Positions 27,739 to 53,349 are shown, counted from the first letter of the stretch. The stretch is DNA of 54,748 nt from Candidatus Harrisonbacteria bacterium (GCA_023244835.1 JAHFLN010000002.1:1-54748), one strand, 5' to 3'. Numbers and translations: made by a program. Notes: generated by a model from the letters alone, not told the origin.

Positions 27739-28460
27739 TAGGATTTTTCCCTCCCGATAAGCGGGTGATAGCCTTGCATGACATAGACAATGCCGGGCTT
27801 TTTGCCGAGAAGATGGTTTGGCTTGCGTCTCGGTACGAGATTCTGCCGCTCGACCGCCTTTTTCTCGTGCCGCAGGCGCGCCGGACGCAGGTCGCGATCA
27901 CGTTCGATGACGGTGACGCGACGCAGTACGAGCGTGCCGTTCCCATATTGCGTTCATTGCGCCTCCCTGCAACCTTTTTCCTCTGTTCGGGTTTTATCGG
28001 CCTCGTAGAAGACGAGGTTCGGGATTTTGTCTGCCGGCGGTTGCGGCGGACGCGCATACTTCGCCCTCTCACGGTTTTACAAGCTCGCGCTATGGCACAT
28101 GATCCTCTTTTTACGATTGGCAGCCATACTTCCCGCCACGCGGACCTAGGAGCTGTGCCGCCGCATGAGGCGATTGAGATTGCCATGGCAGACAAGCGTT
28201 CTTTGGAGGCCATGATCGGCACTTCCGTCCGTTGGTTCGCCTACCCTTTCGGCCGCCGTTCCAGTATTCCCAATCCGCCAATCGGTCGGGCCCTTCTTGC
28301 GGGAGGGTTTTCCGGCGCATGCACGATCATTCCCGGTCCGGCGGATGGCGACGACATGAGCGAGATACCCCGCTCATGCCTCGATATCCATTCCTCTTCC
28401 TTCAGGTGGCGCTTGTCTCTCGGCCGGACGTATGATTGGATGCGATATGTGCGGGATTAA
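27735..28460 (+). CDS. Polysaccharide deacetylase (NodB/CE4 domain)
   Basis: VAITFDDGDATQYERAVPILRSLRLPATFF and a later GSHTSRHADL. ATGA overlap with the upstream GT. Confidence 0.8.
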   Translation: MIGFFPPDKRVIALHDIDNAGLFAEKMVWLASRYEILPLDRLFLVPQARRTQVAITFDDGDATQYERAVPILRSLRLPATFFLCSGFIGLVEDEVRDFVCRRLRRTRILRPLTVLQARAMAHDPLFTIGSHTSRHADLGAVPPHEAIEIAMADKRSLEAMIGTSVRWFAYPFGRRSSIPNPPIGRALLAGGFSGACTIIPGPADGDDMSEIPRSCLDIHSSSFRWRLSLGRTYDWMRYVRD

Positions 28461-30270
28461 CGGATTCACATTCGAGGACGAGCGGCTTATCCGGGGAATG
28501 AATGCCGCAACGGCCCATCGCGGCCCCGACGGCGCTGATTTCCATGTCGGTTTGGGCATTTCGCTTGGGCAGAATCGCCTGAGTATCTCCGATACCGATT
28601 CCGCCGCCCGTCAACCGCTTTGGAGCCATGATCGCCGGCATATCATCGTCTTCAACGGGGAGATTTACAATCATATCGCATTGCGTTCCGAGCTTTCCGG
28701 ATTTCCGTTCAGGACGATGAGCGATACCGAAACGATTCTCGCGGCCTATGGACGATGGGGGGCGCGTTGCGTCGAGCGTTTCGATGGCATGTTTTCCTTC
28801 GCGATATGGACTCCCGAACGAGACGAGCTTTTTCTCGCGCGCGATCCCCAGGGAGTGAAGCCCTTATATTACCGTCATGAGAATGGCCAATTCTTTTTCT
28901 CTTCCGAGATGAAGGGGCTTTTGGCAGACGGATCGAAATACCCTCTCTCTCTTGCCGCATTCTCGCTTTATATGCGTTCAGGATACGTCCCCGGGCCGTT
29001 TACGATGTTCTCCGGCGTCTTGAAGTTCCCCCCCGGCCATCGCGGTTGTTTTTCCCAGGGCATGCTGCGTATCGAGCCATATACGCCCCTTGTCGATCAT
29101 AGCCGTTTCTCCCGCGTCCCTTATGGAAGCCGTAGCGCGGCCCGCGAAGGAATCCGGGAGGCGATTTCCGAATCCGTTACCCAACAGCTCGTCGCTCGGC
29201 GTCCATTGGGCATTTATCTTTCCGGCGGTCTCGATTCGAGCGTCATCCTCGATTGCGCTTTCCGCGCCTCTTCCTCCCCCCTTTCGACTTTTTCCGCCGG
29301 CTTCGACCTTCATGACGGCGAGGAGGGAATGAAATTCAATGCCGATTTTTTTCTTGCCCGGAGGATCGCGGCGCATTATGGCACGCGCCACCATGAATCG
29401 CTCGTGGCCGGTTTCGATATCATCCCCCTCTTAGAGCTCGCATCATTCCATCTCGATGAGCCGATCGCGAATCCTACCGCGATCGCGATGATGAAGCTGG
29501 CCCGAGATGCCTCTTCCGACATCCGCGTCATCCTTTCGGGGGATGGCGGTGATGAGCTCTTCGGCGGATACAAACGATATCGCTTGAGCCGGCGGATGGA
29601 CCTTTTACGCCTCCTTCCTCGCTTTCTTCAGCCTTCCATTATCCGCGAGACCGAGCCGTTTCTCGACCGTTTTGGCCTCTTCATGTGGGAAAAGGATGCT
29701 CGTCTTGCATCTGTCCTTACAGACGATTTTCTGACCGACGAGCACAGGCGCCTTTTCGGGGTATTATGGGAGCGCGCTCGCGGCTCCTTATTCGAATCTG
29801 CTTTCATGGATATAGATCGAGAGACTTGGCTCGTCGACGAATCCCTCCTTCGGACGGACAGAACGACGATGGCATACGGGATCGAGGCCCGCGTTCCCTT
29901 CCTTTCCGCTTCTGTCATCGCCGTTTCCCGACGAACCCCCCTTTCTTATAAGGTTGATATTTTCACAACCAAGAGCATCATGCGCGGCGCGTTTCGCGGA
30001 CGCGTGCCTGATTACGTTCTCAATCAGCCGAAGCGCGGCTGGATTTCTCCGGGGGCGAAATGGCTGCGTCGGCCGGGATTGCATGCTTATGCGAATGAGC
30101 TTTTTTCCGCGTCGTATTGTCCGGCAACGGCCCATCTCTTCAAGTGGGACGCCGTCCGAACGCTTCTCGATCGCCATGTCTCCCGCGATGAATACGCTTT
30201 GCAGATCCTCTGGAAGATACTTTCATTCCAGGCATGGGCGCACGCATTCGAAAAGAATATTTTCGTATGA
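28447..30270 (+). CDS. Asparagine synthase (glutamine-hydrolysing) family amidotransferase (AsnB/WbpS-like)
   Basis: Ntn start MCGINGF, GPDG, FNGEIYNH, and PP-loop SGGLDSS. Start trimmed to the ATG at 28447. Confidence 0.85.
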   Translation: MCGINGFTFEDERLIRGMNAATAHRGPDGADFHVGLGISLGQNRLSISDTDSAARQPLWSHDRRHIIVFNGEIYNHIALRSELSGFPFRTMSDTETILAAYGRWGARCVERFDGMFSFAIWTPERDELFLARDPQGVKPLYYRHENGQFFFSSEMKGLLADGSKYPLSLAAFSLYMRSGYVPGPFTMFSGVLKFPPGHRGCFSQGMLRIEPYTPLVDHSRFSRVPYGSRSAAREGIREAISESVTQQLVARRPLGIYLSGGLDSSVILDCAFRASSSPLSTFSAGFDLHDGEEGMKFNADFFLARRIAAHYGTRHHESLVAGFDIIPLLELASFHLDEPIANPTAIAMMKLARDASSDIRVILSGDGGDELFGGYKRYRLSRRMDLLRLLPRFLQPSIIRETEPFLDRFGLFMWEKDARLASVLTDDFLTDEHRRLFGVLWERARGSLFESAFMDIDRETWLVDESLLRTDRTTMAYGIEARVPFLSASVIAVSRRTPLSYKVDIFTTKSIMRGAFRGRVPDYVLNQPKRGWISPGAKWLRRPGLHAYANELFSASYCPATAHLFKWDAVRTLLDRHVSRDEYALQILWKILSFQAWAHAFEKNIFV

Positions 30271-31466: not shown

Positions 31467-32575
31467 TCGTTCTTATCAGCATTTCCGTTGATCCCGTGAA
31501 CGGTTGGGGAACGCTCACCCATAACTATGTTCGTGCCCTATGGGAACGACGCACCCCTTTCGTGCTTCTTTTGCCGAAAAGCGCCCGGATTCCCAACGTT
31601 CCTTTTATTTCGTGCATCAAGCCCGTCTTACCCGACCTTCCGCTTGCATTCGGTGGACCTGCGGCGCTTTTCGCCGCTTTGCGGTTATGGCGTCCCGCGT
31701 CATATACCCCTCCTCCCCATTCCTTGGTTCATTCGCTTGTCGATTTTCCTTATGCCGTTCTTGCCTATCGTTTCGCCCGTTCCTACGGACTGCCGTTCGT
31801 CATGAACGCGATAGGGACGTATTCCGTCGCGCCGTTCCACCGCTTTCCCGACAAGCATTTCTTCATATCTGCCTATCTCCGTGCCGATCGGATAGTGGCG
31901 ATCAGCGAATATACCAAAAGGCGCATGATGTCCGCCGCAGGATACGAACGTCCTATCGATGTCATATATCTTCCCGTTGAACGCCCCGTTCCCGAGGGTC
32001 GGGAGGACTTCTCGATTCTCGAGAAGATTCCGCGAGGCAAGCGCTATATTCTCACCGTCAGCTCTCCCCGCATCGGCGGCCGGAAGGGATTCGATGTCGT
32101 CCGCGCGGCATGCTCGGCCATCCTTCCTGACTTTCCCGATATCCATCTCATTGCCGTGGGGGGCGTTCCGGCCTCGGCTTCGGACCACACCGTCTTTTCT
32201 CGCGTATCTTCTGCGGAGCTCGGCGCTCTTTATTCGCGATGCACCGCCTTTCTCGCCGCGCCCCGATCCTTCGGGGATCATTTCGAGGGATACGGACTCG
32301 TGTATCGCGAGGCTGGGCTCTATGGCAAGCCTGTCATAGGAACCGCTTCCGGCGGCGTTCCCGAGGCGATAGACGACGGCGTTACCGGATCGCTCGTTCC
32401 CGAGAATGACGCGCCGGCCATGGCCCGCGCCTTGCGCCGTATCCTTTCCGACGCGCCGTTTGCTGCAAAGCTCGGGGATGCCGGCCGCGCGCAGGCCTCC
32501 GCATGGACGTGGGGGAACTATGCGGATCGATTACTTGTCCTTTACGAGGATCTTTCTATGAAGATTGGCTATTAG
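31463..32575 (+). CDS. GT4-family glycosyltransferase
   Basis: FEGYGLVYREAGLYGKPVIGTASGGVPEAIDDGVTG. ATGA overlap with the upstream gene. Confidence 0.8.
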   Translation: MIVLISISVDPVNGWGTLTHNYVRALWERRTPFVLLLPKSARIPNVPFISCIKPVLPDLPLAFGGPAALFAALRLWRPASYTPPPHSLVHSLVDFPYAVLAYRFARSYGLPFVMNAIGTYSVAPFHRFPDKHFFISAYLRADRIVAISEYTKRRMMSAAGYERPIDVIYLPVERPVPEGREDFSILEKIPRGKRYILTVSSPRIGGRKGFDVVRAACSAILPDFPDIHLIAVGGVPASASDHTVFSRVSSAELGALYSRCTAFLAAPRSFGDHFEGYGLVYREAGLYGKPVIGTASGGVPEAIDDGVTGSLVPENDAPAMARALRRILSDAPFAAKLGDAGRAQASAWTWGNYADRLLVLYEDLSMKIGY

Positions 32576-33228
32576 GTTTTTTGGTCCGCATGGTCCGGCT
32601 TCGTCGCCGATATCAAAAGGCTCGTGCCTAATCCCTTTCGTATGACCGAAGGAAGATAACGGGTATAAGAAGCGTCTTTTTCCGAAAGTTTTTTTATACG
32701 GAAGCCTCCTTTTTCCACCAAAGAAATGAACGAGGCCGGCGTAAAAAGGAATTGGTGCGTAGGATCCCCTAGATCTTCTTTTCTCAAAAAAAGGAATATG
32801 AAAATCTTTCTCCAATGATAGGCATTCGGCGTATCGATAATCAGGATGCCGTCCGTTTTCAATACCCTTGATATTTCCCGTAACGCATATCCCGGGTTTC
32901 TCAGATGCTCGATTACCTGTCCCATGTATACCGTATCGAAAAAACCATCATTATATGGCAGCCCATCTTCAATATTTCCTTTTTTCTGATGCGGATACAG
33001 CATCGCGCATCGTTCAGGCGGGTCATACAGGTCGAATCCATACAGGGTGCTTCCGGGATTTAGTTTTTCCGACAGGGCGAGGTAAAATGAGTTCGAAGCA
33101 CCCTCCCCTCCTATCCCTCCTATATTTCCTATATCCAGGATATTTCCCGCTTTGAATTGAGATAGGAAAAACGCCTGTCTTCCGCATACTGATCCGGAAA
33201 ACATATCATATATGCCTCGTATTCGCAT
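32572..33228 (-). CDS. Class I SAM-dependent methyltransferase
   Basis: ILDIGNIGGIGGEG, FFDTVYMGQVIEHLRNP and LKTDGILIIDTPN. It is convergent with the GT4 gene, and the stop codons overlap. Confidence 0.75.
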   Translation of the reverse strand: MRIRGIYDMFSGSVCGRQAFFLSQFKAGNILDIGNIGGIGGEGASNSFYLALSEKLNPGSTLYGFDLYDPPERCAMLYPHQKKGNIEDGLPYNDGFFDTVYMGQVIEHLRNPGYALREISRVLKTDGILIIDTPNAYHWRKIFIFLFLRKEDLGDPTHQFLFTPASFISLVEKGGFRIKKLSEKDASYTRYLPSVIRKGLGTSLLISATKPDHADQKT

Positions 33229-33244
33229 GATGGCATTCTAAGCC

Positions 33245-34609
33245 ATGGAATGTATAAAACCAATCTTAAACCGCCTCTCCGAATTACAATCGGTCAATCG
33301 TCGTATTCAGGAGGACGCCGTCTTGCGCGGTAGTTTGGAGTATCATGGCATTTCACTATGGTCTTGCGAGCAGCAGCTCTTATGGGAGCAGACGGGTCGC
33401 GCGTCGGTAAAAAAAAGAATAGGCTCGACGGCCGCTCTTTTTTGCGCGCGCTGTGTCGCATGCGTTTCTTTAACCTGGCTTATCATTCGTATGCGCGTTT
33501 CGAAATCCCGTATTTTCATATACGGAATCGATCTCGTCGATTCTCCCTATGCGGGCGATGCGCGCATCGCCCGCATCTATCGGTTCTTGCACGAACGGAA
33601 AATCGGTTATGGGGAGATATTACATACCACGTTCAGCCGTTCTTTTTTCGCCAATTTCCTGCGGCGCAGGCGGGCGGCATTTTATCTCGGCATTGCTTAT
33701 GCCAGTAGTACCGGCCGGGCGTCCCGACCGGAATTCGATCGTCTCGTTTCCGATCGCCTGAATGTCGCCGCATCCCGTCCCCGGTCGATCGCTTTCATAC
33801 GGCGCGTGCTCTGGCTTACCGGTGCGCGGACTATTTTAGCGATCGATGATACCCGTTATTATTATCCGCTCATGATCGCCGCCCGCGAATGCGGTATTCC
33901 CTTTTATGCCTTCCAGCACGGCCGCTTCAATCCTTTCATGCCCGGCTGGGCGCAGTACGGCATTGATCCCGCTGCGTGCCCATTTCCCGATGCGGTATTC
34001 GTCTGGAGCGAGTATTGGCGGTTCGCTCTCATGCGCATAAGTCCTCCTGCGGCGCTGCATGCGGACCGCATACGCATAAGCGGGAAGCCGTCCATCGGAA
34101 CGGATACGGATGCACTGCTCGCTCCTCCTATCGATGACGGCGTCATGTCTTTTCTCATTCCCCATGAAGATATCCTTCCTGAAGCAGAAATCCTCGATTT
34201 CATAGCTCGCATCCTCGCTATGCCGGATACCCGCGTCATATACAAGCTGCGGCGCGGAAGGCCCACGCCATCATTTATCCGGCATTTCAAATCCGCTTCC
34301 CGTTTCGAATGCCGTTTTGATATTTCTCCGGACGACTGGTCGCGCGTCGACGCCGTCTTAGGAGCATATTCAACCTTTTTATACGAGGCGGCTGCGTGCG
34401 GGCGGCCCGTAGGCGTCCTTGAGACAAGCGTCACGCAGGCTTCGGATCTGGTTCTCGGAGGCTTTGCGGAGGCGGTATGCCTATCTACCCTTTCCTCGGA
34501 TGCGTCCCGTGTCGCGCGGACTCCATGGGGCGTCGTGTGCGCCCGCCGGGAGGCTTTCCGATGCCAGGCATCCTTTAACGATGCCCTTTCTGCTATCATG
34601 CCTACATGA
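33245..34609 (+). CDS. Hypothetical membrane-anchored protein, possible GT-B-type glycosyltransferase
   Basis: 454 aa with one TM helix (AALFCARCVACVSLTWLII). The C-terminal two thirds have an alternating alpha/beta pattern (ILAIDDTRYYYPLMIAARECGIPFYAFQHGRF...GAYSTFLYEAAACGRPVGVL). ATGA overlap with kdsB. I recognise no family signature. Confidence 0.5.
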   Translation: MECIKPILNRLSELQSVNRRIQEDAVLRGSLEYHGISLWSCEQQLLWEQTGRASVKKRIGSTAALFCARCVACVSLTWLIIRMRVSKSRIFIYGIDLVDSPYAGDARIARIYRFLHERKIGYGEILHTTFSRSFFANFLRRRRAAFYLGIAYASSTGRASRPEFDRLVSDRLNVAASRPRSIAFIRRVLWLTGARTILAIDDTRYYYPLMIAARECGIPFYAFQHGRFNPFMPGWAQYGIDPAACPFPDAVFVWSEYWRFALMRISPPAALHADRIRISGKPSIGTDTDALLAPPIDDGVMSFLIPHEDILPEAEILDFIARILAMPDTRVIYKLRRGRPTPSFIRHFKSASRFECRFDISPDDWSRVDAVLGAYSTFLYEAAACGRPVGVLETSVTQASDLVLGGFAEAVCLSTLSSDASRVARTPWGVVCARREAFRCQASFNDALSAIMPT

Positions 34610-35346
34610 AAAAAGTCTTAGGCGTAATTCCGGCCCGGCTTCGCTCCACTCGTCTTCTTGAAAAGCTCCTCCTTCCTATCGATGGGAAACCGCTTTTGTA
34701 TTATACGTGGCGACAGGCACGGCAAGCCTCCCAATTGGATCGCATATTGATAGCCACCGATTCGAGGGAGATATACCGTGCCGTGAAGGCGTTTGGCGCG
34801 GAGCCGGTCATGACGAGTTCCGCCTGTCTGACCGGCAGCGACCGCGTTGCCGAGGCGGCGCGCGCATTCAACGGCTTCATTCCGGACATCGTCGTGAATA
34901 TCCAGGGAGATGAGCCGCTCATGCCTCCTCGGGCAATTGATGCCTGCGTCGCGTCCCTTCTGGCCAACCCCGATGTTTCCATGGCCACGGTCGCATCTCC
35001 CCTTTCTTTTGAGGAGTCACGCAAGGATTCCATCGTCAAGGTCGTGTGCGATACTCGCGGCCGCGCATTGTATTTTTCCCGCTCGCGCATTCCCCATCCT
35101 CGCGTCCCGTACAGCGCTTATCTCCGCCATATCGGCCTTTATGCATTCCGCTTGCCGTTCCTTTTCGATTATATCCGACTACCTCAGACTTCTTTGGAAA
35201 TCGCCGAGAGCCTCGAACAGTTGCGCGTTTTGGAGCATGGACATGCGATTCAAGTCGCGGCAGGAGATTTTCCGAATATCGGCGTCGATACTCTATCCGA
35301 TTTCCGCCGCGTCAAAAAGATGATTATGATTGGAAATAGGGCATGA
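34606..35346 (+). CDS. kdsB: 3-deoxy-manno-octulosonate cytidylyltransferase (CMP-Kdo synthetase)
   Basis: It matches E. coli KdsB motifs one for one: VIPARLRSTRLLEK, TGSDRVAEAA, VNIQGDEPLMPP, ALYFSRSRIP, RHIGLYAFR, LEQLRVLEHGHAIQVA, GVDTLSDFRRV. Confidence 0.9.
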   Translation: MKKVLGVIPARLRSTRLLEKLLLPIDGKPLLYYTWRQARQASQLDRILIATDSREIYRAVKAFGAEPVMTSSACLTGSDRVAEAARAFNGFIPDIVVNIQGDEPLMPPRAIDACVASLLANPDVSMATVASPLSFEESRKDSIVKVVCDTRGRALYFSRSRIPHPRVPYSAYLRHIGLYAFRLPFLFDYIRLPQTSLEIAESLEQLRVLEHGHAIQVAAGDFPNIGVDTLSDFRRVKKMIMIGNRA

Positions 35347-36776
35347 ATATCCTTGAGAAGGCCGGTCCTTCGGACATCGCTATTTATCCGTTTCCCCATC
35401 TCCGCATCGATGACGCCCTTGATGACGGCTTTTGTAGCCGCCTCATCAGCGAATTCCCCTCCTTACTCCTCTTGAGCGGAGGGACGGCATATGGCAGCAA
35501 TGAGCGGCTGAGCTACCCGGCATGGCATGCGATGCGGGATACGCGCATTAGTCCCCTCTGGCGCGATTTTATCGCCTTCCATGCCACTCAGGATTTCTTC
35601 GATCGCGTAATCCGCGTATTAGGATTGGATGAATTCCGCGGATCGCGCGTCGGCCTTCGGTACCGGGATACGTTTGATGACGCGGATGTCCTGATCGACG
35701 TTCAAATTTGCGCCAATACGCCCGTAGCGCGATCCCCTTCGTCCGTGCGATCCATCCATTTAGACAGCTCTAACAAGCTATTCGTGGGCCTGTTCTACCT
35801 TCGTCCGAAAGAGGATGATTCTTCCGGGGCCGATTTGGAGTTGTATGGGCCATCGTCCCATTCGGTTCCTGCCGCAGTCGTTCCCTATCGGAATAATACA
35901 TGCGTTTTTTTTGCGAATTCCCCTTCAGCCTTCCATGCCGTCTCCGTGCGCGGCATCACTCCGTATCCCCGTCTTTTCGTGAATATAATCGCCGAAACGA
36001 ACCGCTCTCTCTTTTCCTCGTCTTTTTGCCCTCCTGCCGCGAAAATCTCTTCGAAAGCTGCGGTTTTTCGAAATCGCATAGTGAGAGCGGGCAAGATTTT
36101 CCAGTTCTTCAGCGTTCGAATCCCCGCATTTTTCGCTGATCGTTTCGACGGCTCGCTGTATTCTTCGGATCGCATGGTTCAACGGGCCCGTGCCCATGGA
36201 ACGGTCTCAGGCCTTCCGATCCTCGCCGTCGGAGCCGGCATGAAGTCTAGCATCTCCCCACTGCTTTCCATGGACAATGCATCCGTCTGGACTCCTAGCG
36301 TACATGACGCGGGTAAAAGGAAGGCTTCGTATGGCCTTATCGTCTTTTTCGAGTCATGGGACCACGCTTTTCTCCAGGAATCTGCCGAGGCTTTTGCCGA
36401 AGCGCTCGCAATCGGCGGATCTCTCTTTCTTGTCGCGGGATCTTCAACGAATACCCTTCATGGATTACGCGCCTCGTTGGAGCGCGCAGGCTTTTCTGTC
36501 GTTTCGATTTCTCCCTGCGGGGGGGCATTCTGGCTTCTCGGAAGGCTTTTGAGGGGAATTCCCGATTATATATTTCACCAATATATTTTCACCAATCATA
36601 AGCATTCGATCCGATGGTCGGCGACAACTTTCATACTCGTACCGCTTCATGCGATATTTTCCTATGCCGTCATCCCGTTTTGCGCCCTTTGTTTTTACTT
36701 GGACCGTTTCGATCTTCGTCGCGATTTCACATTGGGCTATTCTTGCGAGGCTATCAAGATCCGTTCCGCGAGATAG
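35343..36776 (+). CDS. Fusion protein: 2OG-Fe(II) oxygenase-like N-domain, methyltransferase-like middle domain, C-terminal TM helices
   Basis: 477 aa. It has an HxD...H...R arrangement (SIHLDSS ... SPSAFHAVSVR) preceded by IYPFPHLRIDDAL. The middle region has ILAVGAGMK and GGSLFLVAG. The C-terminus is hydrophobic (FILVPLHAIFSYAVIPFCALCFYL). ATGA overlap with kdsB. Confidence 0.6.
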   Translation: MNILEKAGPSDIAIYPFPHLRIDDALDDGFCSRLISEFPSLLLLSGGTAYGSNERLSYPAWHAMRDTRISPLWRDFIAFHATQDFFDRVIRVLGLDEFRGSRVGLRYRDTFDDADVLIDVQICANTPVARSPSSVRSIHLDSSNKLFVGLFYLRPKEDDSSGADLELYGPSSHSVPAAVVPYRNNTCVFFANSPSAFHAVSVRGITPYPRLFVNIIAETNRSLFSSSFCPPAAKISSKAAVFRNRIVRAGKIFQFFSVRIPAFFADRFDGSLYSSDRMVQRARAHGTVSGLPILAVGAGMKSSISPLLSMDNASVWTPSVHDAGKRKASYGLIVFFESWDHAFLQESAEAFAEALAIGGSLFLVAGSSTNTLHGLRASLERAGFSVVSISPCGGAFWLLGRLLRGIPDYIFHQYIFTNHKHSIRWSATTFILVPLHAIFSYAVIPFCALCFYLDRFDLRRDFTLGYSCEAIKIRSAR

Positions 36777-38046
36777 GCCGTTGCCCGTTTTTTTCCGCAA
36801 AAATCGAAATGCTGTTGACGCAGAGCGTGAACGCGTACAGCACGATGCGCGAAATCACGATGCCTTCGATGCCCCAGTATGCCGCCGCTCCCATATAGCA
36901 GAGTATGCGCATCATATTCGGCAGGATGCCGTTCACATATAGCATTACCATCATCTTTTGCGAATGAAAGACATATGCGATATGCGTTATCGGAATTATG
37001 AAAATGAAGCTGATGCCGAGTAATTGGGCGTAGGCGATCGCGGGGCGGTACTCTGGAAATATCCCCTTGATCATGGGCGGGATTATTATCCAGTATGCCA
37101 CGCATACGATGATTCCGGCGCCCATTCCCCATATCACGCGTCCCATCATACCTCGCCGTATGTCCGTCATAGCAGTCATGCTCAGCTTCGGCAACGATAC
37201 GCTGATCACTGACCGTATGGCTGCCTTTCCCGCATCCATGATATGCGAGGCGATCGAATATATCGCCAACTGAACGGGGCCTAGGAAATGGAATAGTATT
37301 ATCTTGTCGGCATGCTCGGCCAGTATCGAGAATGCATTAATGATGCTTAAGTGTCCGCTGAAGCGGAAGAGGGAGCCGTCGTCCTTTTCGGGGGTGTTGA
37401 TAATTTTTCGCGCATATAGCGCGCGGGCCCGGATATAGAGATATAGGGCGCTGGATACCGAGCTGAAACCGTATGCGCACATGACGGCTATGAGACTGTC
37501 GGTGCGTGATGTCACGATCGCGAGCAGTATGAGCGTCATTCCGTTAAAGGCGATTCCGTAGAATGCGAGTCGCTTGAATTCTTTCTTGCCGAAGAGGAAT
37601 GCGCTTGCCGGACTCAAGGTCGTCGTTATGAGGAATGCTCCTCCGGCAATGACAAGGGCCCCGATAAATGATCCGTCAACGCCCGTATCGTATAGATATA
37701 GGGCGTATGCGCCGAATGGGAGGGATAATGCGGCGCACCATCGGGTCTGGATGCGAACGGCTATATCGAGCGCTTTTTCCCGCCCGCACGCGGCTGCCTG
37801 GGCAACTGCCGTATTCATGCCGCTCAATGTGCATGCGCCGCATATTCCGATGAGCGCCATGATGTATGCGTAGTTGCCATATACGGCAACTGGCAGTTTG
37901 GCGATGAGGAGGATGGATGCCGCGATGGCAAATGCAAGCGCTCCGGCGTTCTGGAGCAGCGTTGCGCTGCCATGGCGCAAAAAATATCCATAATCCACGC
38001 CCGTGGGTGCGATTATCTTATTTTTCAACCACCGCAATGGATCCAT
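36754..38046 (-). CDS. Wzx-like polysaccharide flippase (MOP superfamily)
   Basis: ~430 aa with 12-14 TM helices typical of polysaccharide biosynthesis transporters. The start is trimmed to MDPLRWL (38046). The longest ORF extends to 38169 over the upstream gene. Confidence 0.7.
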   Translation of the reverse strand: MDPLRWLKNKIIAPTGVDYGYFLRHGSATLLQNAGALAFAIAASILLIAKLPVAVYGNYAYIMALIGICGACTLSGMNTAVAQAAACGREKALDIAVRIQTRWCAALSLPFGAYALYLYDTGVDGSFIGALVIAGGAFLITTTLSPASAFLFGKKEFKRLAFYGIAFNGMTLILLAIVTSRTDSLIAVMCAYGFSSVSSALYLYIRARALYARKIINTPEKDDGSLFRFSGHLSIINAFSILAEHADKIILFHFLGPVQLAIYSIASHIMDAGKAAIRSVISVSLPKLSMTAMTDIRRGMMGRVIWGMGAGIIVCVAYWIIIPPMIKGIFPEYRPAIAYAQLLGISFIFIIPITHIAYVFHSQKMMVMLYVNGILPNMMRILCYMGAAAYWGIEGIVISRIVLYAFTLCVNSISIFAEKNGQRPISRNGS

Positions 38047-39262
38047 AGCCGAAATTTTTAATAACGGGCGATGCTTTAAACCGTTCGAGCTTTCGCATGA
38101 GCGGAATAAGCCTTTTGAAATACGGAAGGCACAGGCTTGATGCCTGGAATGAAACGATGCGGAACCCACCGTTTTTCAGCTTTCGCCGCATAACCCACGG
38201 ATACCGCCATATATGGGGAAGACGGCTGTCTCCCGAATATCCTTCGTTGACCCCTTCTCCTCCTAAGTTGAGGATTATCCGTATGCATCCCACAAACCAC
38301 GCTGTCAGGCTCCAGCGGGAAATATCCCAGAACGCATCGCCTCCAAGGACAATAGCGGCGCACGGGTTCAGGCAGGTCGGCATGGCGATGATCGCTTTTT
38401 TCGTCGTCACGCGCCTTATTTCCGCGAGGGCTTTTTCAAAATCAGGAACGTGTTCCAGGACATGCGAGCTGATCACCCAATCGAACGAATTATCTGCGAA
38501 TGGGAGCGATTCTGCGTCTGCGGTCATAAACTCCACATATGCTTCAAGTCCTTTCTTTTCAGCCTGTTTTTTTCCCGCCGCGATATTTATAGGAGATATG
38601 TCGCAGGCGGTCACTCGTGCTCCTTTTTGCGCGAGCATGATGGCTAATGTTCCATCGCCGCAGCCTGCATCCAGAACTTTTTCTCCCGCGCATATGAATT
38701 GCGCGATAGAGCGGTATTCCGTCTCATGAGCGTATTTTCGCAAGGGGAACTCCTTTGAAAGACGCACATCGTTTTGCCGTTCCGTCCTCTTCCGATATAT
38801 TTCCTTGATTTCTTCGTCGGGAACGCCCGTTTCGTTCTTGCTATCCATGCCTTGTATCACGCTCGCTATTATGAGCCAATACACTATGAAAAAGAGAGCT
38901 GCCGCGTAAGGCATCGCTACGCCACTTCCGGAGAGCGTTCTGTAGATTTCCGTATTAGCCTGATACGCGAACAATGCCCATAGGATGACGATCGATCCGG
39001 TTATCGATACCGCGCTTGGTTTCAGGCGAGCGATCGTTATCCGCATCCCTCCATCCCCCCCTTTCTTTCTGGCTACCCGCGAGCATATTTTCAATGCCGT
39101 GCTTATCCCGATAAACCAGGCGATTGTCCGCAGCTTGATTCCTGATTCACGCATGAGCGCCGGATACGCCCAATTCATGCTTCCTAGCAACGCCGCCGCC
39201 GCACTATACCATGCGAAGCTCGCGTCATTCACCTCCATAATGAAACGGAGGGCCTTTTTCAT
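38018..39262 (-). CDS. Membrane-anchored class I SAM-dependent methyltransferase
   Basis: N-terminal ~4 TM helices, then VLDAGCGDGTLAIMLAQKGARVTACD, LPFADNSFDWVISSHVLEHV. Confidence 0.8.
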   Translation of the reverse strand: MKKALRFIMEVNDASFAWYSAAAALLGSMNWAYPALMRESGIKLRTIAWFIGISTALKICSRVARKKGGDGGMRITIARLKPSAVSITGSIVILWALFAYQANTEIYRTLSGSGVAMPYAAALFFIVYWLIIASVIQGMDSKNETGVPDEEIKEIYRKRTERQNDVRLSKEFPLRKYAHETEYRSIAQFICAGEKVLDAGCGDGTLAIMLAQKGARVTACDISPINIAAGKKQAEKKGLEAYVEFMTADAESLPFADNSFDWVISSHVLEHVPDFEKALAEIRRVTTKKAIIAMPTCLNPCAAIVLGGDAFWDISRWSLTAWFVGCIRIILNLGGEGVNEGYSGDSRLPHIWRYPWVMRRKLKNGGFRIVSFQASSLCLPYFKRLIPLMRKLERFKASPVIKNFGYGSIAVVEK

Positions 39263-41115
39263 GGGTTTTTTCGCGGGAATCGGTACACGATGTACGAATC
39301 GGTTTCATTCCAGGATTTGAATATTTTTTCGAACGCATTCCGGGCAGAGAATTCTCCCGGAGTCTTTTTCGTGATGATCCCTATTCCCGGGGACGGTATG
39401 TCTTCTATGTCTTTTTGCTCGTGCGCAAACATATCGAATGTTTCGCATGTTTTCGCCGAGCATTCTCCCGTTACGGAAAACCATGGCCGCGGAGAGAATA
39501 TCCATTGGGCATATGGCACGAGAATCGGATTTCCGAAGCTTATTACCGCTCCCTCCGGGAAGGCGTCATTGACGCTTTTTATCTTTTCGATGGCTTGTTT
39601 TTGTGCTGCGGCATATACTCCTCCGTCTCGTCCGGTTATCATATCGAGAGCGACTAATTCTTGCTGCCCTTTCGCTACCTTAAGCATGATCGGAAGCATT
39701 AGCATTATGGCGAATATAGCGCTGCCTCTCGCAAGATTTTCCGCTCCGGAACGGCGTATCGCGAGGATCGCGGCCGCAATTGGCAGGAGAGCGAGCACGC
39801 TCACGCTTGGATACATAACAAGAAAATAACGGAATGACTGCCAGCTGGCATAAAACGCATGGTATGCGATGAAAGGCGTTATGAGGAACAGCCAGGGCAA
39901 CGCGAACCCGAACGCGAGAGCGAGAAGAAGACGTCTGCGTTCTTTGTCGAAGCATGCCATGAGCGGAATCAGCGCCATGCCCGCAATGGCAAGCCAGATG
40001 ATCTTTTGTTGGGGTTTGTCGATATATGGCTGATCCCATATGGTTAGATTTTTTGCGTATTCGTCGGCATAGCTGATAAGTTCCATGGGATAATAGTCAA
40101 GGACGCCTCCGGCATAGAGGCCGTATAGGACTATAACAATGCATGTCGGCAGGAAGGCTATTTTCTCGAAGATATGCCAATGCGTTTCGTACGCCTTCCC
40201 GCTTATGCGCGCGACAATCACCCGTGTTCCTTCGTATAGCACCTTCGCCGTTCCGACGCTTAAGACGAACATCGTGAATGTCGCCAGATGCGTGAAATAA
40301 AAAAGTACCATGAACGCAATTCCTCCCGCGCCGCTGATATTTCTTCCGAGGAGAATGAACCCCGCGATAAGAAGGAATATCCCTATATTTTGAGGAACGA
40401 TATCCGTCGATATCATGTAGTAATTTGACCAGTGGAGCATATAGAAGGCTATCGGGGCGAGTATCCCCAATGTGCGCACCGGCACCGCTTCATACGCGAG
40501 CCGTGCCATCGCGCATGCCGTAAGCATGTATGCGCCATATTGCCATGCGGTCATAAAGAATTGGTATGCGGCAAGGTTTTTCGGCAGGAAGGAGACGTAT
40601 GGATTTAAGATCATGAAGAAAATCGGCTGAAAAATCGGATCCCTAAAGAAAAATGAAAAGATCGCTCCGGGAGCATGCGCTGAGCGGTTTGCGTAGGCGA
40701 GCCAGTAATATTGGTCGGTTGCCGGATTGAAATACGGATTCGGGAGATCTTTCATCACGCCGTACAAGAGCAGTCCCAGGAGGCTTGTGACGATGAGCGT
40801 CATCGCGTCATAGGGCGATACGGTTATCTTTACGAGATTCTCCTTTCGTTTCACCTGTCTGTATGTCCAGGCTAATAGAGCGAGTACGGCTAGTGCCGCG
40901 ATGGTTACGCGCAGCCTCGGATCATCCGAGAGAAATAAAAAAAAATTAGCCGAAATAGCGATGAGTATCTGGCATCCGAAACCGAACAGCGCGCCATATA
41001 TGAGAAAAAGAACGAGATCAGCCGAGCGTTCACGAACGAATATCCTTGCCGCGGCGATTCCGGGCAGGAGAAACGTGATGGCGAAGGGTACTATGACGGC
41101 GACGCCGGTATTCAT
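39259..41115 (-). CDS. Polytopic membrane protein, GT-C-like
   Basis: 618 aa with more than 12 TM helices, the early loop motif NPATDQYYWLAYAN, and a C-terminal soluble domain. ATGA overlap with the downstream methyltransferase gene. Confidence 0.6.
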   Translation of the reverse strand: MNTGVAVIVPFAITFLLPGIAAARIFVRERSADLVLFLIYGALFGFGCQILIAISANFFLFLSDDPRLRVTIAALAVLALLAWTYRQVKRKENLVKITVSPYDAMTLIVTSLLGLLLYGVMKDLPNPYFNPATDQYYWLAYANRSAHAPGAIFSFFFRDPIFQPIFFMILNPYVSFLPKNLAAYQFFMTAWQYGAYMLTACAMARLAYEAVPVRTLGILAPIAFYMLHWSNYYMISTDIVPQNIGIFLLIAGFILLGRNISGAGGIAFMVLFYFTHLATFTMFVLSVGTAKVLYEGTRVIVARISGKAYETHWHIFEKIAFLPTCIVIVLYGLYAGGVLDYYPMELISYADEYAKNLTIWDQPYIDKPQQKIIWLAIAGMALIPLMACFDKERRRLLLALAFGFALPWLFLITPFIAYHAFYASWQSFRYFLVMYPSVSVLALLPIAAAILAIRRSGAENLARGSAIFAIMLMLPIMLKVAKGQQELVALDMITGRDGGVYAAAQKQAIEKIKSVNDAFPEGAVISFGNPILVPYAQWIFSPRPWFSVTGECSAKTCETFDMFAHEQKDIEDIPSPGIGIITKKTPGEFSARNAFEKIFKSWNETDSYIVYRFPRKNP

Positions 41116-41121: not shown

Positions 41122-41706
41122 TTATAGGGGGCGTCCTACCAATTCGAGCTCATATGCGCCAATCCAGTCTTCGGGAGATTCTGCCGTCAGGCGTACTGCC
41201 GACGCGTTGTAATTCCCTTTAACTATAGTTTCCCTGCTTTTCGGAAGATTCCCTTCTTCAATAGTCGTCCATTCATTGTCGTCTCTTTTTGCTTCGAGTT
41301 TCCAATGAGTCACGTATTTGCTTATAGTGCCGTAGTCCCCCCAGATAATGATCGTTTTGCTGATTTGGTACGGCTCGGTCAGCGTGAGTATGTAATCCAA
41401 TCGGCGATTTCCCGGAGCAGCAAGCGTCCGTTCATCCCCGTCTATGAGTTTTGCGGCATCGGTTCCCTTGTCGATGCTATATTCTTTCGATTCGTATGTC
41501 CCGCTTGTTATAAAGAGATTTTCTTTCCCCAGTCTTTTAAATCCTACCCGTTCCGCATTCAAATTATTACCACACGCGATCGAGCGGATCGATAGCGGGA
41601 AAGATATATTGCTTCCGATGCATAGGCGGACGATACCGACCGAAAGAATAACCGATATGCTTACGGCTATTCCTGCCGTTATCGCTATGCCATGCCACTT
41701 ATCCAT
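41122..41706 (-). CDS. Membrane-anchored F5/8 type C (discoidin) carbohydrate-binding domain protein
   Basis: 194 aa with an N-terminal TM helix, then AKLIDGDERTLAAPG...ISKTIIIWGDYG...YVTHWKLEAKRDDNEWTTI...ASAVRLTAESPEDWIGAYELELVG. Confidence 0.7.
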   Translation of the reverse strand: MDKWHGIAITAGIAVSISVILSVGIVRLCIGSNISFPLSIRSIACGNNLNAERVGFKRLGKENLFITSGTYESKEYSIDKGTDAAKLIDGDERTLAAPGNRRLDYILTLTEPYQISKTIIIWGDYGTISKYVTHWKLEAKRDDNEWTTIEEGNLPKSRETIVKGNYNASAVRLTAESPEDWIGAYELELVGRPL

Positions 41707-41712: not shown

Positions 41713-43314
41713 TTATTGTAGTCGTGCGTACTCTTTCCAGTCAATCGAAAAAATACGCGCTTTCGACTGGGAATTCGTCCCGTAATTTGAATATATCTCC
41801 TTGAGATAGGGCGGTATCCGTTCGCCGTCATAGATGCTCAGGTACTTGTTCGGCACGAACGGTATCGGGTTCTGAACGTCGTCTTCTAGGGCTATATGCG
41901 TCACTTTTCGCATTCGCATGATGGGCATCGCCTCTTCCAAGGAGTCGAATTTTCCCGGATAGGTTATGCGCAGTCGCGATTTCGGCGCGTATAGGTCGAG
42001 CATGCCGACGCCTCCGACCTCCGTGTCCGGCAGGAGCATCATTATATTCATGCCGTTTCCTATCGCGAGCACGCCCCGCACGTGGGCTGCTGCCCATCTT
42101 GCCCATACGAGGCTGTCCGCCGTTACGCGCGAGACGTCTTTCGTGAATCGTCGCGCGCTGAAGAGGAATACCGAAATCGAAACGCAGAGTATGACGGCTT
42201 GTGAGGCGGCAAAAATACTGAGAACCATCTTTTTCGATTCGGGGCGACTGGCGATCATCGCTTTCACTCCCGCCGCGCTCATGATGATGCCTAACGGGGC
42301 GATGGGGAAAAGATGCCGCGTGAGATAATAGAGATAGAAAATGGGCGTAAGGCTCGCGATCCATATGCCAATACCTGTCCATATCGGGAACCATAGCGGA
42401 TCGCGCCACGTAACGACTACTCCGTACAGGAAGAAGAAGATTCCTGGAAGGAGAACATAGGCGAAATATATGAGCGCGAGGAGTGTTCCGGCGATGAAAA
42501 ATCTATTGAATATATCTCCTGCCGTGTGCGATGCGAGATAGTTTCCGATCGAGACCGAGGGGGCGGCCCCCCATACGTCGACGTATCGTTCGACGAAATA
42601 TTTGCTATTTTCTCCGTAATCGAATGCGGAGCCGAATTGCGCGTGGCGCATGTAGAGCATGGGTCCCGAAACGGCGAAGAAAACGGCGATCATGAGAAAT
42701 GCCGTTCCGAGAGCGCGCCACCGGCCCGCTTTACACGATATGAGGAACGATACGACGAGTATAGGCAGGATCATGATGCCGTTCGGCCGCACCCAGTATC
42801 CGAGGCCCGCGACGGCGCTTGCGGAATATGCGAATGCGGCATTATCGCATCCTTTATATATAAGGCATAGGCTCGTGATGAAGATTAGGGTGAAGAGCGA
42901 TTCTGTGAATATAAATAGATTGTCGGGGATGATGATTGGAAAGGCGAATATGAACATGATAATGGCCCCGAGAGACGCCTCCTTCGACCGAGTGAGCTTA
43001 TAAGAAAGCCATGCGAGTGGAAAAACGATCGCGGCGCCCGTTACCGCGGTCACTAGTACGCCGATCAGGAAATGTTCGAATATGGATTGCCCTCCCCATA
43101 GATATAGGAACGGCGCGAGAAAGGCAGGGAGACCGATGCCGTGCGTGTGGATAGGGAGCCAATTTCCCCTCGTAATCTCAAGCGCTTTTAATACGTATAT
43201 ATACGCATCATATTTTTGGATCGGGAAGGTGGTGATATGCAGTATGGGAAAAACCACCGCGAGGCGCACCGTCGCCGCCAAAAGGAACAAATAGAAAACG
43301 TGGAGGAATCGCAT
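41713..43314 (-). CDS. GT-C glycosyltransferase (ArnT/PMT, GT39/83-like)
   Basis: 533 aa with first-loop motif QKYDAYIYVLKALEI, about 12 TM helices and a C-terminal periplasmic-type domain. Confidence 0.75.
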   Translation of the reverse strand: MRFLHVFYLFLLAATVRLAVVFPILHITTFPIQKYDAYIYVLKALEITRGNWLPIHTHGIGLPAFLAPFLYLWGGQSIFEHFLIGVLVTAVTGAAIVFPLAWLSYKLTRSKEASLGAIIMFIFAFPIIIPDNLFIFTESLFTLIFITSLCLIYKGCDNAAFAYSASAVAGLGYWVRPNGIMILPILVVSFLISCKAGRWRALGTAFLMIAVFFAVSGPMLYMRHAQFGSAFDYGENSKYFVERYVDVWGAAPSVSIGNYLASHTAGDIFNRFFIAGTLLALIYFAYVLLPGIFFFLYGVVVTWRDPLWFPIWTGIGIWIASLTPIFYLYYLTRHLFPIAPLGIIMSAAGVKAMIASRPESKKMVLSIFAASQAVILCVSISVFLFSARRFTKDVSRVTADSLVWARWAAAHVRGVLAIGNGMNIMMLLPDTEVGGVGMLDLYAPKSRLRITYPGKFDSLEEAMPIMRMRKVTHIALEDDVQNPIPFVPNKYLSIYDGERIPPYLKEIYSNYGTNSQSKARIFSIDWKEYARLQ

Positions 43315-44099: not shown

Positions 44100-45566
44100 T
44101 TACGCTTTTCCATGCGTTCCTTTCTCGAAATACTCCTCTTCTCCGCCGATGCGTTCCAGGTCATGCCGTTTTCCTTCGATCACGCTCCGCGCGGCCATGA
44201 TGCCCATTTCGAGCGAATGATCCTGGTTGTTGTAACGGAATCGTCCTGGCCGCCCTATATAATGGAGATTTTCGAACCGGTCGAGGTATTCCTTCACCGG
44301 GTCGAGGTACGAGCGGTATTCGGTGTCGTAGATCGGATAGACTTTTTTCTGTCGGATCAGATAACTTTCCCTCACTTCGTCTTGCCTGCAGAAGCCGAGG
44401 CGTTCCAGGTGCCCCATCGCGAGCCCGAGCAGGTATTCTTTCGGAGCGTTCCATATAGCGTCTCCTTCGAAGCAGAAGAATTCGATGAAGAGGGACGTCT
44501 TTCCCGGCGGGCTCATTTTCTGGCTGAAATTCTTCATTTCGCTGATCCTGCCGAAGGGGATTTGTTTTTCCGGAAAATAGATCCATTGATCGTGCGTAAC
44601 CCGTTCCTTGTCGAGGGTTATGAAGAGGTATGTCTGGTCCCGGTAGCGCATTCTTTCCGCGGCGGCCATCACAGCTTCTGGCGGTACGGGGTCTAACAGC
44701 TTCAGGAATTCCTTCGGCGGGATCGATTCGATGATTTGGTCGGGGGCCGTTTCCTCCGTCCTATCCCCTGCCTTCAGGGTTATTCCCGTGATCCGTTTCC
44801 CGTCATGCCGAATTTTTATCGGGTAGGTTCCGCATCGCACGGGATGTCCTCCGTCCGCGAGTTTTTTCGCGATCGTTTCATAGATAAGTCCCGTGCCGTA
44901 TTCGGGGTAATAGAAACTATCCACGAGCGTGCGGAGCGGAGCGGTGCGGAAGGACCCTATGGCGCCCTCCATAGCCGCTTTAATGAGAAATCCCACCGAG
45001 AGCCCCTTGATGCGCTGGGTCGCCCAATCCGAATGTATCGTCGAGGCTTTTACGCCCCAAATTTTTTCTGTGTAATTTATCATATTAAACTCGGCGAGCG
45101 TCCTGCCGAAGTGCGCCACCACATGATCCTCGAAATTTCGGATCGGCTTTTTCATGAGGCCGTAGCGTGCCTGCGCGACGCAGTAATCGGCGATCATTCG
45201 CACGGCTTTCGTGGGGCCGATATTCGCGAGCGCTTGCACGGGTTTTATGGGGTAGTCGTAGAATTTTCCGGCGATGTGCTGGCGCGTCTGTCTCTTCACT
45301 TCAATCCAGCGTTCGCCTACAAGTTCGCCTATGAATTCGTAGAGGTAGGGATTTTTCGAGAAGAACCGGTGCGGGCCGTTATCCGTGCGGAAGACGAGCC
45401 CGTCTTCGTCGAATGAGTATGTCTTCGCGAGGCCTCCCGGGATATCCGCCTTTTCCACGACCGTAAATTTCTCTCCCGCCTTCGAAAGCTCGATCGCCGA
45501 TGCGAGTCCCGCAGGCCCTGCTCCTATCACATATGTTTCCCGCATATGGGCTAAGAGTACGCTCAT
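44100..45566 (-). CDS. FAD/NAD(P)-binding oxidoreductase (amine-oxidase / UDP-galactopyranose-mutase-like superfamily)
   Basis: 488 aa with dinucleotide fold YVIGAGPAGLASAIELSKAGEKFTVVEKADIPGG, then TDNGPHRFFSKNPYLYEFI. Confidence 0.8.
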   Translation of the reverse strand: MSVLLAHMRETYVIGAGPAGLASAIELSKAGEKFTVVEKADIPGGLAKTYSFDEDGLVFRTDNGPHRFFSKNPYLYEFIGELVGERWIEVKRQTRQHIAGKFYDYPIKPVQALANIGPTKAVRMIADYCVAQARYGLMKKPIRNFEDHVVAHFGRTLAEFNMINYTEKIWGVKASTIHSDWATQRIKGLSVGFLIKAAMEGAIGSFRTAPLRTLVDSFYYPEYGTGLIYETIAKKLADGGHPVRCGTYPIKIRHDGKRITGITLKAGDRTEETAPDQIIESIPPKEFLKLLDPVPPEAVMAAAERMRYRDQTYLFITLDKERVTHDQWIYFPEKQIPFGRISEMKNFSQKMSPPGKTSLFIEFFCFEGDAIWNAPKEYLLGLAMGHLERLGFCRQDEVRESYLIRQKKVYPIYDTEYRSYLDPVKEYLDRFENLHYIGRPGRFRYNNQDHSLEMGIMAARSVIEGKRHDLERIGGEEEYFEKGTHGKA

Positions 45567-53264: not shown

Positions 53265-53336
53265 TGCGGTGTGGAGCATTGGCAGCTCGCCGGGCTCATA
53301 ATCCGGAGGTAGGAGGTTCGATTCCTTCCGCCGCAA
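53265..53336 (+). tRNA. Initiator-type tRNA-Met (anticodon CAT)
   Basis: Hand-folded cloverleaf: acceptor tgcggtg/cgccgca, D arm gagc-attggca-gctc with A11:U24, anticodon arm ccggg-ctcataa-tccgg, and T arm ggagg-ttcgatt-ccttc. It aligns closely with E. coli tRNA-fMet (GGGCUCAUAACCC there, GGGCUCAUAAUCC here). No CCA is encoded. Confidence 0.85.
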
Positions 53337-53349
53337 CAAATTCAGTACG

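Follow-up and report, generated by a model that had tools for sequence, protein, structure and literature searches.

A putative Kdo transfer and tailoring cassette in the glycan cluster of a Candidatus Harrisonbacteria genome

Three overlapping genes on a contig of Candidatus Harrisonbacteria (GCA_023244835.1, JAHFLN010000002.1) probably form the core of a conserved Patescibacteria cassette that places tailored Kdo (3-deoxy-manno-octulosonate) on a cell-surface glycan. The genes occupy positions 33245 to 36776 of a stretch of 54,748 nucleotides, analysed over its whole length and called the window here. They encode a predicted glycosyltransferase (GT) of an unnamed family (open reading frame 1, ORF1), a CMP-Kdo synthetase of the KdsB family (ORF2), and an Fe(II)/2-oxoglutarate (2OG) oxygenase fused to a methyltransferase-like half with a transmembrane (TM) end (ORF3).

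Kdo, a sugar acid of eight carbons, has been described chiefly from the surfaces of Gram-negative cells. Together with kdsA and kdsB it is routinely taken as a genomic marker of lipopolysaccharide (LPS) and an outer membrane. To our knowledge, bacteria of the Candidate Phyla Radiation (CPR) have neither. One paper on a Parcubacteria genome concluded from the absence of lpxC and kdsA that there was no LPS, and called the CPR envelope unclear (PMC5220378). Full-text literature searches returned no description of Kdo genes or Kdo glycans in CPR. According to the sequence-only reading of this DNA, use of Kdo outside LPS and capsule in a CPR-type cell appears undescribed, and for CPR these searches agree. 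The wider statement that Kdo outside diderms is undescribed needs qualification because there is a gene-level precedent in a monoderm, Bacillus coahuilensis m2-6, which carries a strain-specific, horizontally acquired Kdo-biosynthesis island with KpsC (PMC4744853).

Results

Three coupled genes

The three genes are chained as the sequence-only reading had described, each of the two junctions being a 4-base ATGA start/stop overlap, and they are embedded in a glycan cluster of ~30 kb (about 14.4-45.6 kb of the window).

33245-34609, + strand: ORF1 (454 aa), membrane-anchored GT-B glycosyltransferase and candidate CMP-Kdo:glycan Kdo transferase (AlphaFold model, Foldseek, synteny)
34606-35346, + strand: ORF2 (246 aa), KdsB, CMP-Kdo synthetase (3-deoxy-manno-octulosonate cytidylyltransferase; profile and PDB matches)
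35343-36776, + strand: ORF3 (477 aa), predicted 2OG oxygenase joined to a degenerate methyltransferase-TM half

Linkage of the ORF1 family to Kdo genes

ORF1 homologues and flanks of 10 kb were taken from 27 species-representative genomes, nearly all of them Patescibacteria, and metagenome contigs contributed more; 30 distinct loci were then surveyed for synteny by tblastn. At least one Kdo-pathway gene lies within 10 kb of the ORF1 homologue in 20 of the 30 (kdsD in 16, kdsB in 9, kdsA in 5), and kdsD is typically found immediately upstream of the ORF1-type gene on the same strand. Loci L002, L004 and L011 contain a compact operon with the order KdsB, His_Phos_1 phosphatase, KdsD, KdsA and GT, and L016 has the same five genes within ~8 kb in another order and on both strands. 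By their profile scores, the KdsA and KdsD neighbours in those loci are genuine (KdsA, TIGR01362 356 against a cut-off of 314; KdsD, TIGR00393 279 and 274 against 203.7).

The strongest single item tying ORF1 to Kdo is P0288, a Rosetta-stone fusion present in two independent assemblies, one from ENA and one from JGI. In this single protein of 700 aa, an ORF1-type GT (aa 1-464) is followed by KdsB (aa 467-695; NF003952 258 against 193). Its gene stands in the order KdsD, GT::KdsB, 2OG oxygenase, methyltransferase, AsnB and, on the minus strand, Wzx. The parts of this locus are homologous to ORF1, ORF2, the N-terminal and C-terminal halves of ORF3, AsnB and Wzx of the window, and the window therefore has the same cassette with a different fusion. 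The order KdsD-GT-KdsB-2OG-MT-Wzx (MT, methyltransferase) recurs in L023, L030 and L038.

The other members of the cassette are also common beside ORF1 homologues. A Wzx homologue lies within a few kb in 26 of the 30 loci, a 2OG oxygenase of either of two types is near the ORF1-type GT in 13, and an AsnB-like amidotransferase stands beside the cassette in 12 and in L038 (5228-7075). The AsnB-like enzyme could convert the carboxylate of a sugar acid, perhaps Kdo, to an amide. On the basis of the synteny and the natural GT::KdsB fusion, we infer that the donor of ORF1 is CMP-Kdo, an assignment that is well supported by context. The earlier proposal that the trio installs a Kdo-type sugar on a non-LPS glycan of a CPR cell, and then oxidises or methylates it, is thus strengthened by the 20 linked loci, by P0288 and by the recurring gene order; its methylation step has become doubtful, as discussed below for ORF3.

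An unnamed family of GT-B glycosyltransferases

ORF1 carries one hydrophobic segment and several strongly conserved signatures:

33428-33493, + strand: hydrophobic anchor helix, aa 62-83 (Kyte-Doolittle window mean 2.07; model helix aa 62-86)
33914-33922, + strand: Q224-H225-G226 signature in the N-terminal Rossmann domain (100%, 96% and 98% conserved in an 82-member alignment)
34160-34384, + strand: C-terminal-domain signatures P306-x-E308, K334-x-R336-x-D338 and G373-x-Y-S-T-x-L-Y380 (85-100% conserved), likely to bind nucleotide or phosphate, to judge from general GT-B architecture

The protein matches no Pfam or NCBIfam model, in keeping with the earlier remark that it has no recognisable signature, and yet its fold can be recognised. 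In an AlphaFold2 model built from a 17-sequence alignment (pLDDT 86, pTM 0.85), the N-terminal region is helical, a long helix spans the hydrophobic segment, and two Rossmann domains are followed by C-terminal helices. The order of strands and helices fits the GT-B fold, in which a C-terminal helix crosses back over two Rossmann-like domains. A Foldseek search against PDB gave 300 matches at E<=1e-3, and the best 50 of these 300, which were inspected, are all GT-B glycosyltransferases or UDP-GlcNAc 2-epimerases, with E values down to 1.7e-11. The fold neighbours include UDP-GlcNAc 2-epimerases, the GT1 enzymes CalG4 and OleD, GlgM and MurG, at TM-scores of 0.4-0.6. From the model, ORF1 can be confidently predicted to be a GT-B glycosyltransferase with a single membrane helix. 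The length of 454 aa, the one TM helix, the Rossmann-like halves and the QHG motif noted from the sequence all agree with the hydropathy profile, the model and the 96-100% conservation of the motif.

A profile search of 1.84 billion representatives placed 331 clusters (50% identity) in the family at E<=1e-30; at the looser threshold of E<=1e-10 the number is 665. Almost all of the best 150 are full-length proteins (about 480-500 aa), and the family is confined almost entirely to metagenome-assembled genomes (MAGs) of Patescibacteria. Positions that are 85-100% conserved over 82 members are D96, D105-x-R107, E124, H127, R141-x-R143, D201-D-x-R204 and Q224-H-G226 in the N-terminal part, and Q344, besides the three signatures listed above, in the C-terminal part.

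Relatives outside the family are hard to find. When each member was scanned against Pfam, 14 of the 82 had weak Glyco_transf_4 matches in the N-domain and 4 matched Glyphos_transf (PF04464; best E 0.0075, far below the gathering score), and membership of ORF1 among TagF-like glycerophosphotransferases was rejected on this test. Against PDB sequences, a 17-member profile had 0 matches, and the 82-member profile found only a GT28 enzyme at E=0.11, which indicates no family link. Kinship to KpsC/KpsS (GT107), WaaA (GT30) or TagF-like proteins, which the sequence-only reading had named for comparison, was sought by Pfam, motifs and the best 50 Foldseek matches, and none was found.

Several observations weigh against the reading of ORF1 as a Kdo transferase and of the trio as a Kdo cassette. 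In 10 of the 30 loci there is no Kdo gene within 10 kb, and neither kdsA nor kdsD was found in the 54.7-kb window by tblastn and profile scans. Neither ORF1 nor any of the 82 family members matches PF04413 (Glycos_transf_N) or the NCBIfam WaaA model, and PF05159 (Capsule_synth) is absent among the Pfam matches of the 82 at E<=1. GT99, GT107 and GT140 are defined by a QXXXD nucleophile motif and a (K/R)XHP CMP motif in the C-terminal domain (PMC12887879). In the 82-member alignment no aligned Q-x3-D/E column pair is conserved at 30% or more and no H-P column pair is conserved, the region that corresponds to (K/R)XHP being P306-x-E308. The structural neighbours of ORF1 are generic GT-B proteins, epimerases included, and among the best 50 of its 300 fold matches there is no known Kdo transferase, WaaA included. 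The fold neighbours of the ORF3 oxygenase include protein prolyl hydroxylases. Finally, we know of no report of chemically detected Kdo, of an acceptor or of enzyme activity from any CPR organism.

Alternatively, ORF1 may be a GT-B enzyme for another donor, such as a TagF-like CDP-alditol phosphotransferase or polymerase, a UDP-sugar transferase or an epimerase-like protein. Kdo would then be moved by another GT of the cluster, and the linkage to KdsB would reflect a common glycan operon only. The top Foldseek matches, which are UDP-GlcNAc 2-epimerases and UDP/TDP-sugar GT1 enzymes, point in this direction, as do the weak Glyco_transf_4 and Glyphos_transf matches, the missing motifs of known Kdo transferases and the many further GT4 and GT2 genes in the window. 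However, we consider this unlikely, given that a translational fusion to KdsB exists and that the ORF1-type protein is the sole transferase adjoining Kdo genes in the minimal KdsB-phosphatase-KdsD-KdsA-GT operons. The family also has unusually many invariant Arg and Lys residues, which may be compatible with an anionic CMP-ulosonate donor.

The CMP-Kdo synthetase and the supply of Kdo

By sequence, ORF2 is a member of the KdsB family, as had been recognised from its motifs. It exceeds the cut-offs of NF003952 (266 bits against 193) and TIGR00466 (182.6 bits against 155.2), matches PF02348 at E 3.7e-49, and aligns over its full length (aa 3-240) with 13 solved KdsB/KpsU proteins in PDB (E 3.5e-48 to 3.8e-32). 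It presumably converts CTP and Kdo to CMP-Kdo.

In the window lineage the enzyme might nevertheless activate a different 3-deoxy-2-ulosonic acid (Kdn, an amino-Kdo or a salvaged analogue, for example), which would account for the absence of kdsA and kdsD nearby. Three other KdsB sub-models score below their own cut-offs on ORF2; the equivalog model NF003948 reaches 199.7 against 281, and two more KdsB subfamily models fall just short. Against another ulosonate stand the TIGR00466 and NF003952 scores, the far lower scores of the PseF, IspD and MobA cytidylyltransferase models, and an identity of 49-53% between the window KdsB and the KdsB proteins of L012, L033 and L038, each of which adjoins KdsD. 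We regard another sugar as quite improbable.

If Kdo is the substrate, it must come from genes outside the window or from salvage, because kdsA and kdsD are not in the window, as the sequence-only reading had also stated. A faint candidate for KdsC, the 163-aa ORF at 22404-22895, was rejected: its HAD-like matches are at E about 0.08-0.1, and it matches no solved KdsC or phosphatase.

The phosphatases of the related loci are of another kind. A His_Phos_1 gene lies directly next to KdsB in five loci (L002:5516-6145, L004:5512-6141, L011:5649-6275, L016:12140-12736 and L027:3890-4396), in the place expected for a HAD-type KdsC, and in L002, L004 and L011 it stands between KdsB and KdsD/KdsA. It is a candidate for a non-orthologous Kdo-8-phosphate phosphatase in CPR. 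The window also has a His_Phos_1 gene (25261-25875), 8 kb upstream of ORF1. This protein is PhoE-like in a PDB search and has no reciprocal tblastn match with the operon phosphatase of L002 and L004; it belongs to a different subfamily, and we do not claim it as their counterpart. A divergent KdsA-like paralogue (DAHP_synth_1) lies just upstream of the Kdo operon in L002 (2895-3812, minus strand) and L011 (3032-3946), with an NF003543 score of 234.5 that is just short of the cut-off of 242.

The host is a CPR-type bacterium

The window carries many housekeeping genes, including those for RNase III, NusB, RNase HII, DnaE, a class II aminoacyl-tRNA synthetase, GatB, NusG, GyrB and PheS/PheT, and two tRNA-Met genes (CAT; 53265-53337 and 53873-53945) that lie ~600 bases apart. 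The nearest named homologues of GyrB, at 64-80% identity, are from Pacebacteria, Parcubacteria or Patescibacteria MAGs, with the best (80%) in Pacebacteria/Patescibacteria MAGs. The sequence occurs in groundwater metagenomes, and the sequencing runs in which it is found are all DNA runs from such metagenomes, none of them RNA. A CPR-type host, as the sequence-only reading had assumed, is supported because of the GyrB affinities and the groundwater occurrence, and by sequence a Paceibacteria-type CPR bacterium appears to be the source. Several of the close CPR GyrB homologues (P0049, P0051, P0052 and others) are ~1,080 aa long and contain an intein (PF14890), and the window GyrB (46962-48899) has none.

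The trio might still be a common LPS-core or capsule locus of a diderm, or a piece of Gram-negative DNA that was binned wrongly or transferred recently. Kdo is a classical Gram-negative marker, several related MAGs are labelled 'Gammaproteobacteria' or 'Bdellovibrionota', and those of L011, L013, L016, L027 and L034 bear the label 'uncultured Gammaproteobacteria'. However, the SecA encoded on the L004/L013 contig is closer to that of B. subtilis than to that of E. coli (824 against 760 bits), and NCBI gives the label Patescibacteria to a protein from the same GT subclade. The 'Gammaproteobacteria' labels therefore look unreliable, and we rejected all five as evidence of a diderm origin. In the window itself the housekeeping genes (DnaE, GatB, GyrB, PheST, NusG), with GyrB nearest to Pacebacteria/Patescibacteria, and a GC content that is uniform throughout the cassette region speak against such an origin. 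No lpx or waaA Pfam family, and no KpsC or KpsS, was detected in any annotated neighbourhood. We find a Gram-negative origin highly improbable.

An oxygenase fused to a methyltransferase-like half

The predicted features of ORF3 are as follows:

35343-36020, + strand: N-domain, aa 1-226, Fe(II)/2OG oxygenase with a PHD/P4H-like double-stranded beta-helix (model, Foldseek, residues)
35757-35765, + strand: H139-L-D141 metal-binding motif, nearly invariant in the family alignment
35934-35972, + strand: distal H198, R203 and R210, invariant in the family alignment
36120-36617, + strand: C-domain, degenerate class I S-adenosylmethionine (SAM) methyltransferase fold (homology to standalone methyltransferases)
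36618-36701, + strand: C-terminal hydrophobic segment, aa 426-453 (hydropathy 2.02; kept in standalone MT-TM homologues)

ORF3 has a full-length homologue only in one close relative, P0020 (64% identity); its other homologues are standalone proteins of 275-318 aa that cover the N-terminal 47%, and in L023, L030 and L038 the two halves are separate adjacent genes. By this comparison, ORF3 joins in one gene what other genomes encode as two neighbouring genes.

The N-terminal 226 residues are modelled with pLDDT >90 as a double-stranded beta-helix. The best Foldseek match is PolD (9blq; E 7.4e-9, TMt 0.73), followed by PasI (9ei6/9ei7) and then by HIF (PHD2) and collagen prolyl hydroxylases. PF13640 scores 19.8 on the window protein, below its gathering score of 27, and matches 13 of 14 members of the N-domain family weakly. 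The alignment was also a check on the metal and 2OG triad, which is intact, there being almost no variation at H139 and D141 and none at H198, R203 and R210. A second type of 2OG oxygenase, which replaces the ORF3 type in other loci, is remotely homologous to it (hhalign probability 91%), and the HxD motifs of the two align. The domain layout read from the sequence alone, namely an HxD…H…R oxygenase followed by a degenerate methyltransferase and a TM end, is thus confirmed.

The analogy drawn earlier with KdoO, the Kdo 3-hydroxylase, fails as a statement of family membership. The KdoO family PF11004 matches 0 of 14 members of the N-domain family at E<=10, KdoO is absent among the top 50 Foldseek matches, and we rejected ORF3 as a KdoO-family member on both grounds. 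The domain may work like KdoO all the same. Specifically, it could be a functional analogue that converts transferred Kdo to Ko (3-hydroxy-Kdo), as would fit with the intact HxD...H...R triad, the conserved place next to the GT and KdsB, and the nearest solved folds, those of PolD and PasI, whose substrates, going by the PDB titles, are eight-carbon sugar acids. Prolyl hydroxylases are nearly as close in fold, however, and the regiochemistry is not predictable from these data. This specific conversion, by an enzyme outside the KdoO family in sequence and top-50 folds, strikes us as distinctly unlikely.

The C-terminal half of ORF3 has no Pfam match of its own but shares 32-35% identity with standalone proteins from L023, L030 and L038, which score above the Methyltransf_11/23 cut-offs. 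These directly follow the oxygenase gene and have the same hydrophobic segment and YLD...LGY tail as ORF3. In the window and in L001, motif I reads LA(V/L)GAG in place of LDAGAG (LAVGAG in the window), a deletion has removed the YESTDFxD segment, and EHV is replaced by DHA or DRA (DHA in the window). The YESTDFxD region holds the usual acidic ribose-binding residue. The homology suggests that the methyltransferase fold is retained, with doubtful SAM binding, and methylation by ORF3, as first proposed, is now doubtful because these motif residues have been lost in the window lineage.

The surrounding glycan cluster

The genes next to the trio include two intact methyltransferases that flank it and the Wzx and AsnB homologues of the cassette:

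28432-30270, + strand: AsnB-like glutamine amidotransferase (TIGR01536 377 bits, cut-off 267)
32572-33228, - strand: class I methyltransferase (above the Methyltransf_23 and Methyltransf_11 cut-offs)
36754-38046, - strand: Wzx-type flippase (Polysacc_synt), 430 aa (PF13440 and PF01943 matches)
38018-39262, - strand: membrane-anchored class I methyltransferase, 414 aa (Methyltransf_11 98.7 bits; predicted TM segments)

The methyltransferase at 32572-33228 is divergent from ORF1 across a 16-base gap and is also kept in L001. The Wzx flippase is convergent with ORF3 and overlaps its 3' end by 23 bases.

The rest of the glycan cluster comprises many GT4 genes, one GT2 gene, a PgaB-like deacetylase, several methyltransferases and the His_Phos_1 phosphatase described above. 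A sulfotransferase (PF13469/PF00685; 25853-26707), also kept in L001, suggests a sulfated glycan. A UbiA-family prenyltransferase that resembles decaprenyl-phosphate phosphoribosyltransferase (DPPR synthase) is found with a methyltransferase and a short-chain dehydrogenase/reductase at 19854-22446, and a GLF/amine-oxidase-like flavoenzyme at 44100-45566; together, this group and the flavoenzyme are reminiscent of the pathways that supply polyprenyl-phospho-pentose or furanose donors for the cell walls of actinobacteria. Four large polytopic proteins of 476-700 aa (13001-14431, 17758-19860, 39259-41115 and 41713-43314), with roughly 7-12 predicted TM segments each and no Pfam or NCBIfam match, may act in the cluster as GT-C-like transferases, polymerases or ligases. 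Encoded among the membrane proteins, at 41122-41706, is a small protein that contains a carbohydrate-binding domain of the F5/8 type C (discoidin) kind. Two GT4 ORFs, at 15467-16630 and 16089-17786, overlap by ~540 bases in different frames; the TTG start of the second is probably over-extended because its GT4 domains start only at ~aa 194. Elsewhere in the window, GC content dips locally to 0.456 at 6001-8000 against ~0.55 in other parts, over a membrane-like ORF without annotation (6217-7209) and the gene for a protein of 459 aa that has a RimI-like acetyltransferase domain.

Discussion

The trio probably works as follows. ORF2 would activate Kdo to CMP-Kdo in the cytoplasm, the Kdo coming either from salvage or from genes beyond the window for KdsD, KdsA and a phosphatase. 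ORF1, held at the membrane by its one helix, would transfer Kdo from CMP-Kdo at the cytoplasmic face to an acceptor that may be a lipid-linked oligosaccharide made by the neighbouring GT4 enzymes. ORF3 would tailor the sugar or the glycan at the membrane. Its oxygenase most likely oxidises Kdo or the residue beside it, by hydroxylation or in another way, and its C-terminal half probably serves here mainly as a membrane tether or scaffold. The neighbouring methyltransferases, the AsnB-like amidotransferase and the sulfotransferase may add further decoration, and the convergent Wzx would flip the finished unit outward for extracytoplasmic assembly.

The type of system is familiar, with a nucleotide-sugar synthetase, a transferase, tailoring enzymes and Wzx. 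What is new is the transferase family, the fusion of a 2OG oxygenase with an MT-TM half, the cassette as a whole and its setting in ultra-small bacteria that lack LPS. It is a broader proposition that Kdo, probably oxidised, methylated and/or amidated, is widespread in the surface glycans of Parcubacteria/Paceibacteria-type CPR and is placed there by a new GT family (at least 331 clusters at 50% identity) without sequence link to GT30, GT99, GT107 or GT140. We see the chances of this as evenly balanced.

If these proposals are true, no Kdo glycoconjugate system would have been described before from a radiation of monoderms without LPS, and the ORF1 family would form a new, CMP-Kdo-dependent CAZy family and a fifth solution to Kdo transfer, ordinary in structure and novel in sequence. 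A conserved Kdo cassette in CPR would also mean that kds genes alone are no marker of diderms. The CPR cell surface mediates episymbiotic attachment, and the cassette offers a testable handle on its chemistry. The natural GT::KdsB and 2OG::MT fusions are ready constructs for biochemistry, and Kdo-azide click labelling might serve as a selective stain for such uncultured cells.

From a comparative perspective, B. coahuilensis m2-6 is a close parallel in genomic setting, as it too carries genes of the Kdo pathway and has no outer membrane (PMC4744853). The CPR cassette differs from it in being widespread over a phylum-level radiation and in its other, unnamed GT family. ORF2 resembles the KdsB/KpsU enzymes (TIGR00466, PF02348) in its full-length alignment, its scores above curated cut-offs and its N-terminal IPAR...S.RL, its QGDEP and its LEQLR segments. 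Unlike those enzymes, it belongs to a CPR host with no LPS genes detectable nearby, and its gene is translationally coupled to a novel GT, outside any kds, waa or kps operon.

The ORF3 oxygenase shares with KdoO the Fe(II)/2OG chemistry and the HxD...H motif, and a plausible analogous role after Kdo transfer. It differs in lacking sequence membership, in having PolD, PasI and PHD2 as its nearest folds and in being fused to a methyltransferase-like TM domain. PolD and PasI, the octosyl-acid oxygenases of peptidyl-nucleoside antibiotic synthesis, are its best fold matches (E 7.4e-9, TMt 0.69-0.73) and, by their PDB titles, bind octosyl-acid derivatives, which are eight-carbon sugar acids; a literature search on the two enzymes gave no relevant paper. 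However, their sequence identity to the ORF3 domain is just 14-18%, and they act in nucleoside antibiotic synthesis rather than in a surface-glycan cassette.

For ORF1, the WaaA/KdtA transferases (GT30) are similar in GT-B fold, CMP-Kdo donor and membrane association, the donor being predicted for ORF1; they differ in their PF04413 and NCBIfam WaaA signatures, which ORF1 lacks, and in their lipid A pathway, which is not in sight here. The transferases of GT99 (WbbB), GT107 (KpsC/KpsS) and GT140 (KrkA) presumably share with ORF1 the CMP-Kdo donor, a GT-B-derived fold and the transfer of Kdo onto a glycan other than lipid A. In contrast to these families, with their QXXXD and (K/R)XHP motifs, the ORF1 family has neither motif nor PF05159, and ORF1 is modelled as a regular two-Rossmann GT-B enzyme with a membrane helix.

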